A stretch of 64,000 nt of DNA from the NCBI RefSeq assembly GCF_003334765.1, contig NZ_QOWT01000019.1; one strand, written 5' to 3'. Positions 3,484 to 3,650 of this stretch are shown in pieces. Made by a program: the position numbers and the translations under genes. The stretch is from Escherichia coli (lineage in GTDB: Bacteria > Pseudomonadota > Gammaproteobacteria > Enterobacterales > Enterobacteriaceae). Position 1 is the stretch's first letter, and the number at the start of each line of letters is the position of its first letter. The notes beneath the pieces were generated by a model. It searched no databases, was not told the DNA's origin, and saw only the letters and a program-made list of their open reading frames with translations.

Positions 3484-3650
3484 CCACTCCTGCTATGCTT
3501 AAGAAATTATTCATAGACTCTAAATAATTCGAGTTGCAGGAAGGCGGCAAACGAGTGAAGCCCCAGGAGCTTACATAAGTAAGTGACTGGGGTGAACGAA
3601 TGCAGCCGCAGCACATGCAACTTGAAGTATGACGAGTATAGCAGGAGTGG
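3484..3650. repeat. ERIC (enterobacterial repetitive intergenic consensus / IRU) element
   Basis: Core at 3555-3598 gtgaagccccaggagcttacataagtaagtgactggggtgaacg matches the two classic ERIC primer sequences; terminal inverted arms ccactcctgctat (3484-3496) and atagcaggagtgg (3638-3650). Confidence 0.7.

Follow-up and report, generated by a model that had tools for sequence, protein, structure and literature searches.

The dxs-yajO spacer and its ERIC element

The window analysed here is a 64-kb stretch of Escherichia coli DNA, to which all positions given below refer; in the dxs-yajO region it is identical to E. coli K-12 MG1655. The dxs gene, which encodes a rate-controlling isoprenoid enzyme that YajO can bypass, extends on the plus strand over positions 1613-3475 according to both the list of open reading frames (ORFs) and the RefSeq annotation of the identical K-12 sequence, and ends with the stop codon TAA at 3473-3475. 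The yajO coding sequence (324 codons) occupies 3655-4629 on the same strand, and the spacer separating the two genes in K-12 is 179 nt long (3476-3654). Within this spacer we distinguish, also on the plus strand, a left host arm, CCACTCCTGCTATGCT (3484-3499), the remnant of a host hairpin loop, TAAGAAATTATTCA (3500-3513), an ERIC element of 127 bp (3514-3640) and a right host arm, GCAGGAGTGG (3641-3650). The right arm contains the Shine-Dalgarno sequence of yajO, AGGAG (3643-3647), 7 nt upstream of the ATG at 3655.

[quoted passage not shown] (1991) and Wilson and Sharp (2006). A preliminary description of this DNA had recognized such an element between dxs and yajO by its diagnostic core, and this identification holds. 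The core, CCCCAGGAGCTTACATAAGTAAGTGACTGGGG (3561-3592, plus strand), is a central inverted repeat corresponding to the apical hairpin; it is found by sequence match in a single copy in the 64-kb window, with 0 copies expected by chance. Alignment to a consensus, which had been proposed as a check, upholds the assignment. As references we used the 127-nt E. coli consensus (Wilson and Sharp) and the Salmonella SeRU-1 element, both as printed in Delihas 2007 (PMC2759123). In local alignments the window is identical to the former at 110 of 127 positions and to the latter at 116 of 127, in both cases with 0 gaps, so that the identity of 3514-3640 to these copies is 87-91%. Both alignments stop exactly at 3514 and 3640, and similarity to the paralogous ERIC copies (pgk-fbaA, ybhJ-ybhI and upstream of preT) is lost at the same two positions. 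TA is found at either terminus (3514-3515 and 3639-3640), and the orientation at this locus is the reverse complement of the printed consensus (PMC2759123). The family is multi-copy: in the median E. coli genome our query matches 6 places. The sites of the ERIC-PCR primers ERIC1R and ERIC2 have one mismatch each. Judged by the consensus and paralog alignments and by the 125-bp difference between filled and empty alleles described below, 3514-3640 is a canonical, full-length and uninterrupted 127-bp ERIC without an insert, that is, a non-autonomous miniature inverted-repeat transposable element. The literature consulted names no partner transposase that would mobilize it in trans.

The element shares with the rest of the family its length of 127 bp, the imperfect palindrome, the diagnostic core, the TA ends, the intergenic location, transcription and multiple copies. 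In itself it is no different from other ERICs; it stands out solely by where it lies, inside the loop of a conserved hairpin of the host. An Rfam search returned a match to V_AS5 (RF02818), a Vibrio antisense RNA, at 3513-3636 (model positions 1-129, E = 2.4e-10), the score of 52.5 bits being below the gathering threshold of 96 bits. The V_AS5 family itself is probably an ERIC-derived transcript.

Filled, empty and long alleles

Among 5426 complete E. coli genomes, 2844 are filled at this locus (query coverage ≥80%) and 48% are without an ERIC between dxs and yajO. In the remaining E. coli genomes that were sampled, the corresponding span is 256 bp as against 381 bp, i.e. 125 bp less. Alignment of the empty allele places the junction between ...GCTTAAGAAATTATTCATGG, also written ...CCACTCCTGCTATGCTTAAGAAATTATTCATGG, and CAGGAGTGGCAGCATG, and across the insertion point this allele reads ...TTCATGGCAGG... 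Positions 3484-3513 and 3641-3650 are retained in the ERIC-less E. coli alleles and, since they are also found in about 75 other species, represent host sequence; the loop remnant at 3500-3513 is identical in the ERIC-less alleles and in E. whittamii. A presence/absence difference of 125 bp at an orthologous locus within E. coli, together with empty sites in E. whittamii and about 75 other species, is a sign of mobility. The difference between 127 and 125 is 2 bp, as expected for one duplicated TA. In E. coli the empty site is CATGG instead of CATAG (TG, not TA, at the insertion point), and thus a TA duplication requires one substitution, or else the duplication was shifted by 1 nt (AT). We assume that the ERIC inserted at a TA on the 3' side of the host hairpin loop, with either TA or AT being duplicated. 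The 54-nt spacer of Citrobacter sp. MGH106 has CATAG where the empty alleles of E. coli have CATGG. Upstream of position 2501 of that locus it also has an Escherichia-type loop, GCTTAAGAGATTATTCATAGCGGGAG, unlike other Citrobacter species, and to judge from this loop the spacer region may have been horizontally exchanged.

The empty alleles bear directly on where the element ends and on where yajO begins. The preliminary description had taken 3484-3650 for a single ERIC, with terminal inverted arms of its own and an extra AT-rich insert in its left half. The outer arms are indeed a true inverted repeat around the core (3484-3499/3635-3650, 16 nt, 94% complementary), distinct from the repeat 3514-3538/3616-3640, but for the most part they are a host stem that is present without the ERIC. 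Because the ERIC is nested in the host hairpin loop, the host arms look like additional terminal repeats. The supposed insert, 3500-3513, is likewise the host loop remnant. Long ERICs with internal insertions do exist, as exemplified by the 78-bp insert in strain CT265, but in these known forms the insert lies to the right of the core and not in the left half. Arms and AT-rich stretch occur where the ERIC is absent, are missing from the paralogous ERIC copies, and flank a consensus alignment that runs over 3514-3640 without gaps. A single ERIC spanning 3484-3650 is thus refuted by the empty-site alleles, and we regard an enlarged element of this kind as extremely improbable. What lies here is an already-known element that had been given its correct name and wrong limits. 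As to yajO, the mechanically derived ORF runs from GTG 3583 to 4629, starting within the ERIC as had been noted. It adds 24 codons (3583-3654, plus strand) coded by the right half of the element, the resulting N-terminus, VTGVNECSRSTCNLKYDEYSRSGS, being ERIC sequence with a stop codon directly upstream. This frame is open, and ERIC sequences are occasionally fused into ORFs (PMC2759123). However, no Shine-Dalgarno sequence precedes 3583, whereas AGGAG precedes ATG 3655 by 7 nt, and the extension is absent in other species and missing or interrupted in the other two E. coli alleles: in the 205-bp allele its frame is broken by stops, and in the empty allele a stop codon occurs 10 codons upstream of the ATG with no start codon between. 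ATG 3655, which the preliminary description had also favoured, is the start used by RefSeq and the only start codon common to the ERIC-less, 127-bp and 205-bp alleles, and YajO of all 80 species examined aligns from residue 1 at this codon. Judged by these comparisons, yajO starts at ATG 3655 and the GTG-3583 frame is an in-frame ERIC artefact; a YajO protein with a 24-residue ERIC-encoded N-terminus is very hard to credit. For annotation this means that an in-frame ERIC can inflate the adjoining ORF and that host inverted repeats flanking an insertion can be mistaken for part of the element; the comparison of filled and empty sites settles both problems.

The internal-insertion variant of about 70-80 bp known from the ERIC family is represented at this same locus by a 205-bp form, found in 123 of the 2844 filled genomes. 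Its 78-bp insert consists of four small hairpins just to the right of the ERIC core and is also present in the ERIC copy upstream of preT and in the dxs-yajO ERIC of E. albertii. In coordinates of the retrieved loci, the 205-bp ERIC extends over 397-653 in E. coli CT265 and over 2244-2500 in E. albertii. The two long elements are 97.6% identical, compared with about 75% at the third codon positions of yajO, which suggests either selection on the element or recent recombination or introgression. In its flanks CT265 is nearer to E. albertii than K-12 is, and this unusual closeness makes introgression as likely as selection as the source of the high identity.

Phytobacter diazotrophicus, P. ursingii and Kosakonia sp. 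S29 have an ERIC of a different subfamily in the same loop, with the core CCCCAGGAGCATAGACACCTATGTGACTGGGG and with 73-80% identity to the consensus and 77% to the K-12 copy. Its orientation is the same and its end is displaced by 1 nt relative to the E. coli element, so the loop has taken insertions on its 3' side at least twice independently. A related metagenome-assembled genome (MAG), UBA3516, retains only a remnant of about 20 nt, TACTCGAAGTAAGACGAGTA, which looks like the product of a palindrome-mediated internal deletion.

A host stem-loop pairing with the yajO Shine-Dalgarno sequence

To characterize the host sequence around the insertion, we relied on a YajO scan with one genome per species, which yielded 80 Enterobacteriaceae loci. 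In about 75 of the 80 species the dxs-yajO spacer is 54-75 nt long and has no ERIC. A comparison across the family had been suggested in the preliminary description; presence of the ERIC does vary at this site, but the arms and the region taken for an insert remain in the ERIC-less spacers. These spacers share one layout. A C-rich tract leads into CTCCTGCTATGCTTA(A), followed by a loop that varies, then (A)GCAGGAG(Y)GG and, some 6 nt further on, the start codon. The arms form a host stem of 11-14 bp, in which the invariant CTCCTGC pairs with the yajO Shine-Dalgarno strand GCAGGAG. In 70 distinct spacers from other species, 86.8% of the cells of the stem are paired, versus 34-52% for slid partner strands. 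At the three basal pairs both members vary (CG/UA/UG and GC/GU/AU/UA), and the covariation score observed was not equalled in any of 500 shuffles. Over the 80 species, GGAG of yajO is predicted to be paired with a mean probability of 0.99.

The left arm, the anti-Shine-Dalgarno strand, is thus delimited by the inverted repeat, the ERIC-less alleles, the 70 spacers of other species and the predicted folds, and the right arm is likewise found in ERIC-less alleles and other species. In the filled K-12 allele, 3484-3493 pair with 3641-3650, both being host sequence, and 3494-3499 pair with the right terminus of the ERIC (3635-3640). RNA folding, another check that had been proposed, gives the following values: -29.2 kcal/mol (z-score -5.5) for the empty allele, -81.5 kcal/mol (z-score -8.1) for the 127-bp ERIC allele, whose spacer is able to form a long hairpin, and -122.6 kcal/mol (z-score -7.7) for the 205-bp allele. 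The host stem is kept in all three predicted folds. The partner of the host TATGCT is CAUG in the empty alleles and the ERIC terminus AGTATA in the filled ones. The ERIC RNA would therefore fold on itself and stack onto the host stem, with AGTATA substituting for the native partner of TATGCT, so that the ribosome-binding site (RBS) would be sequestered with or without the element. Judged by the species comparison and the modelled folds, the outer arms make up the stem of an older host stem-loop that holds the yajO Shine-Dalgarno sequence. The host hairpin corresponds to no Rfam family, the search giving only sub-threshold matches at chance level.

Two other uses of this region were considered and rejected. 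Coupling through a ribosome at the dxs stop codon would do little, as 8-20 nt separate the stop from the stem across species and a ribosome there opens at most the first pair or two. A conserved upstream ORF (uORF) at AUG 3496 was also dismissed: AUG-CUU-AA is conserved in nucleotides, but the peptide and its length vary (2-18 codons) and there is no Shine-Dalgarno sequence, and therefore it is not a coding signal.

Published K-12 RNA data and the proposed control of yajO

Published coordinates were converted to the window from versions 3 and 2 of NC_000913. Term-seq data place an RNA 3' end with 38,352 reads at NC_000913.3 438135(-), i.e. window position 3655 (Adams et al. 2021, PMC7815308). 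This is the A of the yajO ATG, 5 nt beyond the stem. In the same study this 3' end has a Rho score of 2.89, which is significant, and scores 1.03 as an intrinsic terminator; a fusion of the yajO 5' UTR and ORF rises more than 2-fold in rhoR66S (PMC7815308). Our own scan for an intrinsic terminator found none. According to the RNA-seq table of Huang et al. 2020 (PMC7373196), values for yajO are 8-35 as against 300-800 for dxs. The one mention of 'yajO' in Gordon et al. 2017 is an error for yajQ and has no bearing on this locus.

As for 5' ends, the clone of the 'entire 5' UTR' of yajO made by Adams et al. 2021 begins at TCCACTCCTGCTATGCTTAAG, window position 3483 (PMC7815308), and Kim et al. 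2012 give, in their supplement, a weak 5' end (19 reads) at 3561. Position 3483 is 7 nt downstream of TGGCATAAT (3468-3476, plus strand), an extended -10-like stretch, read from the sequence, that overlaps the dxs stop codon. We infer that TGGCATAAT may be a promoter giving transcripts from about 3483; alternatively, RNA processing could have produced the 5' ends published for 3483 and 3561. In several genera the hexamer of TGGCATAAT is replaced by other sequences (CATAAC, CCTGAT).

It is tempting to connect the host stem-loop with the low level of yajO RNA. By keeping yajO poorly translated, the stem-loop would expose yajO to Rho, which would load on the C-rich untranslated RNA and, as a consequence of the poor translation, terminate within yajO. 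Exonucleases trimming back to the foot of the hairpin would then leave the strong 3' end at 3655, with yajO RNA about 20-35-fold lower. The ERIC would be a tolerated, dispensable passenger that lengthens the helix. Hairpins that sequester a Shine-Dalgarno sequence and Rho-dependent attenuators in 5' UTRs belong to a class that Adams et al. 2021 have surveyed (PMC7815308). The dxs-yajO arrangement resembles them in having the RBS in a stable stem, a C-rich and G-poor tract upstream, a Rho-dependent 3' end at the hairpin foot and a downstream gene, yajO, that is far lower in RNA. Unlike them, the stem-loop has no known control by a ligand, a small RNA (sRNA) or a uORF and is not an Rfam family. 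Overall, we consider it probable that the spacer is best explained by an ERIC inserted into the loop of an older host hairpin that pairs with the Shine-Dalgarno sequence, with yajO starting at ATG 3655, attenuation of the kind just outlined and a passenger role for the element.

A different source of information on this spacer is double-stranded RNA (dsRNA). The RNase III-dependent cluster S-43 captured with p19 corresponds to 3435-3621 of the window and is the fourth most abundant p19-captured cluster overlapping coding genes (Huang et al. 2020, PMC7373196, Table 2). The authors ascribe it to a new antisense RNA; its coincidence with an ERIC goes unmentioned in their description (PMC7373196). 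As ERICs are present in multiple copies per genome, multi-mapping could affect the S-43 reads. An antisense 3' end has been reported at window position 3417 (Adams et al. 2021, PMC7815308). On the minus strand, TGCTATACT (3635-3643), an extended -10-like stretch formed where the host right arm meets the ERIC terminus, exists only in filled alleles, the empty ones having TGCCATGAA instead. We infer that TGCTATACT could be the promoter from which the published antisense RNA starts. A two-hexamer promoter scan of the minus strand found nothing, and no start site near the predicted antisense position or near 3506 appears in the supplement of Kim et al. 2012. An antisense RNA starting near 3628 and ending at 3417 would have the dsRNA cluster between its ends, and in this way the junction sequence could explain both that RNA and the dsRNA produced by RNase III. 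This arrangement would fit an antisense RNA better than an intramolecular ERIC hairpin, TGCTATACT itself being a motif match. We had considered the intramolecular hairpin as the source of the p19 dsRNA, but this reading is weakened by the cluster running 40 nt into dxs, by the antisense 3' end at 3417 and by the authors' statement that the p19 method does not capture intramolecular structures (PMC7373196).

Two alternatives to the preferred reading deserve to be weighed here, one concerning the host block and the other the ERIC. The block CTCCTGCTATGCTTAA (3487-3502) is invariant at nearly every position across 70 distinct spacers from many genera. It includes TGCTATGCTTAA (3491-3502, plus strand), defined by the invariant alignment columns, which reads as an extended -10 element (TGnTATGCT) and occurs only once in the window. 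TATG of the block is paired in only about half of the species, and the invariance of TATGCTTAA is not explained by base pairing, so that the block may be a promoter besides, or instead of, an anti-Shine-Dalgarno strand. If it were mainly a DNA signal, yajO would be transcribed from about 3506, giving an RNA without the anti-Shine-Dalgarno strand and with the ERIC in its 5' UTR. The (near-)invariance of TGCTATGCT in the 70 spacers, including positions unpaired in about half of the species, argues for such a promoter, as does the prediction that a transcript from 3505 would leave the Shine-Dalgarno sequence about 54% paired. However, the 5' ends in the accessible K-12 data are at 3483 and 3561, with none found near 3506; a promoter leaves the covariation at the base of the stem unexplained; the C-rich tract has no -35-like hexamer; and the promoter scan made no call there. 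We consider it rather unlikely that the block acts mainly as a promoter. Somewhat more doubtful is the idea that the ERIC is a selected regulatory part, its helix and antisense promoter making dxs/yajO RNA an RNase III substrate and so setting dxs mRNA stability and yajO output. It draws on the abundant dsRNA cluster falling on the element, the antisense 3' end at 3417 and the emergence of TGCTATACT in filled alleles only, and also on an element that is 97.6% conserved from E. albertii to E. coli where third codon positions reach about 75%, and on the second, independent and identically oriented ERIC that Phytobacter and Kosakonia carry 1 nt away. But the element is absent from 48% of complete E. 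coli genomes, from E. whittamii and from about 75 other species, and the relative UBA3516 has only an internally deleted remnant. Moreover, the conservation may reflect introgression, the CT265 flanks being nearer to E. albertii than the K-12 flanks, and two events in the same orientation are not statistically meaningful.

A regulatory role for the ERIC would have precedents in other bacteria. The preliminary description had stated that ERIC hairpins can alter the mRNA stability of flanking genes; this agrees with the literature, as Yersinia ERICs modulate flanking mRNA according to the summary of De Gregorio et al. 2005 within PMC3184786, and it would speak for selection on the present element as well. 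Like those ERICs, the one studied here is co-transcribed with its flanks and would form a long RNA hairpin at the 3' end of a gene, which by analogy makes an effect on the decay of the upstream mRNA plausible. The RNase E site and the effect of orientation, however, are features of Yersinia, the likeness of the K-12 copy being one of co-transcription and predicted fold. The Correia elements (CREE) of Neisseria carry functional promoters and are co-transcribed with their neighbours (PMC3184786). They too are miniature inverted repeats with TA ends, and the parallel to their promoters would be the junction sequence TGCTATACT together with the dsRNA signal. Nonetheless, they belong to an unrelated sequence family, and the promoter at the dxs-yajO junction is a putative one, proposed by motif match. 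Correia hairpins are RNase III substrates.

Returning to the preferred reading of a passenger in an older host loop, one may go a step further and ask whether the host stem-loop is an undescribed conserved cis-regulatory module that the ERIC rewires, its polymorphism acting as a switch of YajO expression. We put this forward tentatively and consider it unlikely. If true, the C-rich tract, the invariant CTCCTGCTATGCTTAA and the stem sequestering the Shine-Dalgarno sequence would together set the dxs:yajO ratio by Rho attenuation. The ERIC would add a long helix and the antisense promoter TGCTATACT at the junction, leading to dsRNA for RNase III, and its presence or absence would be a natural switch of YajO expression. 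The setting is not a new kind of system but a tidy natural experiment: as about half of the complete E. coli genomes are without the ERIC, they provide a natural comparison for the expression of its neighbours, dxs and yajO.
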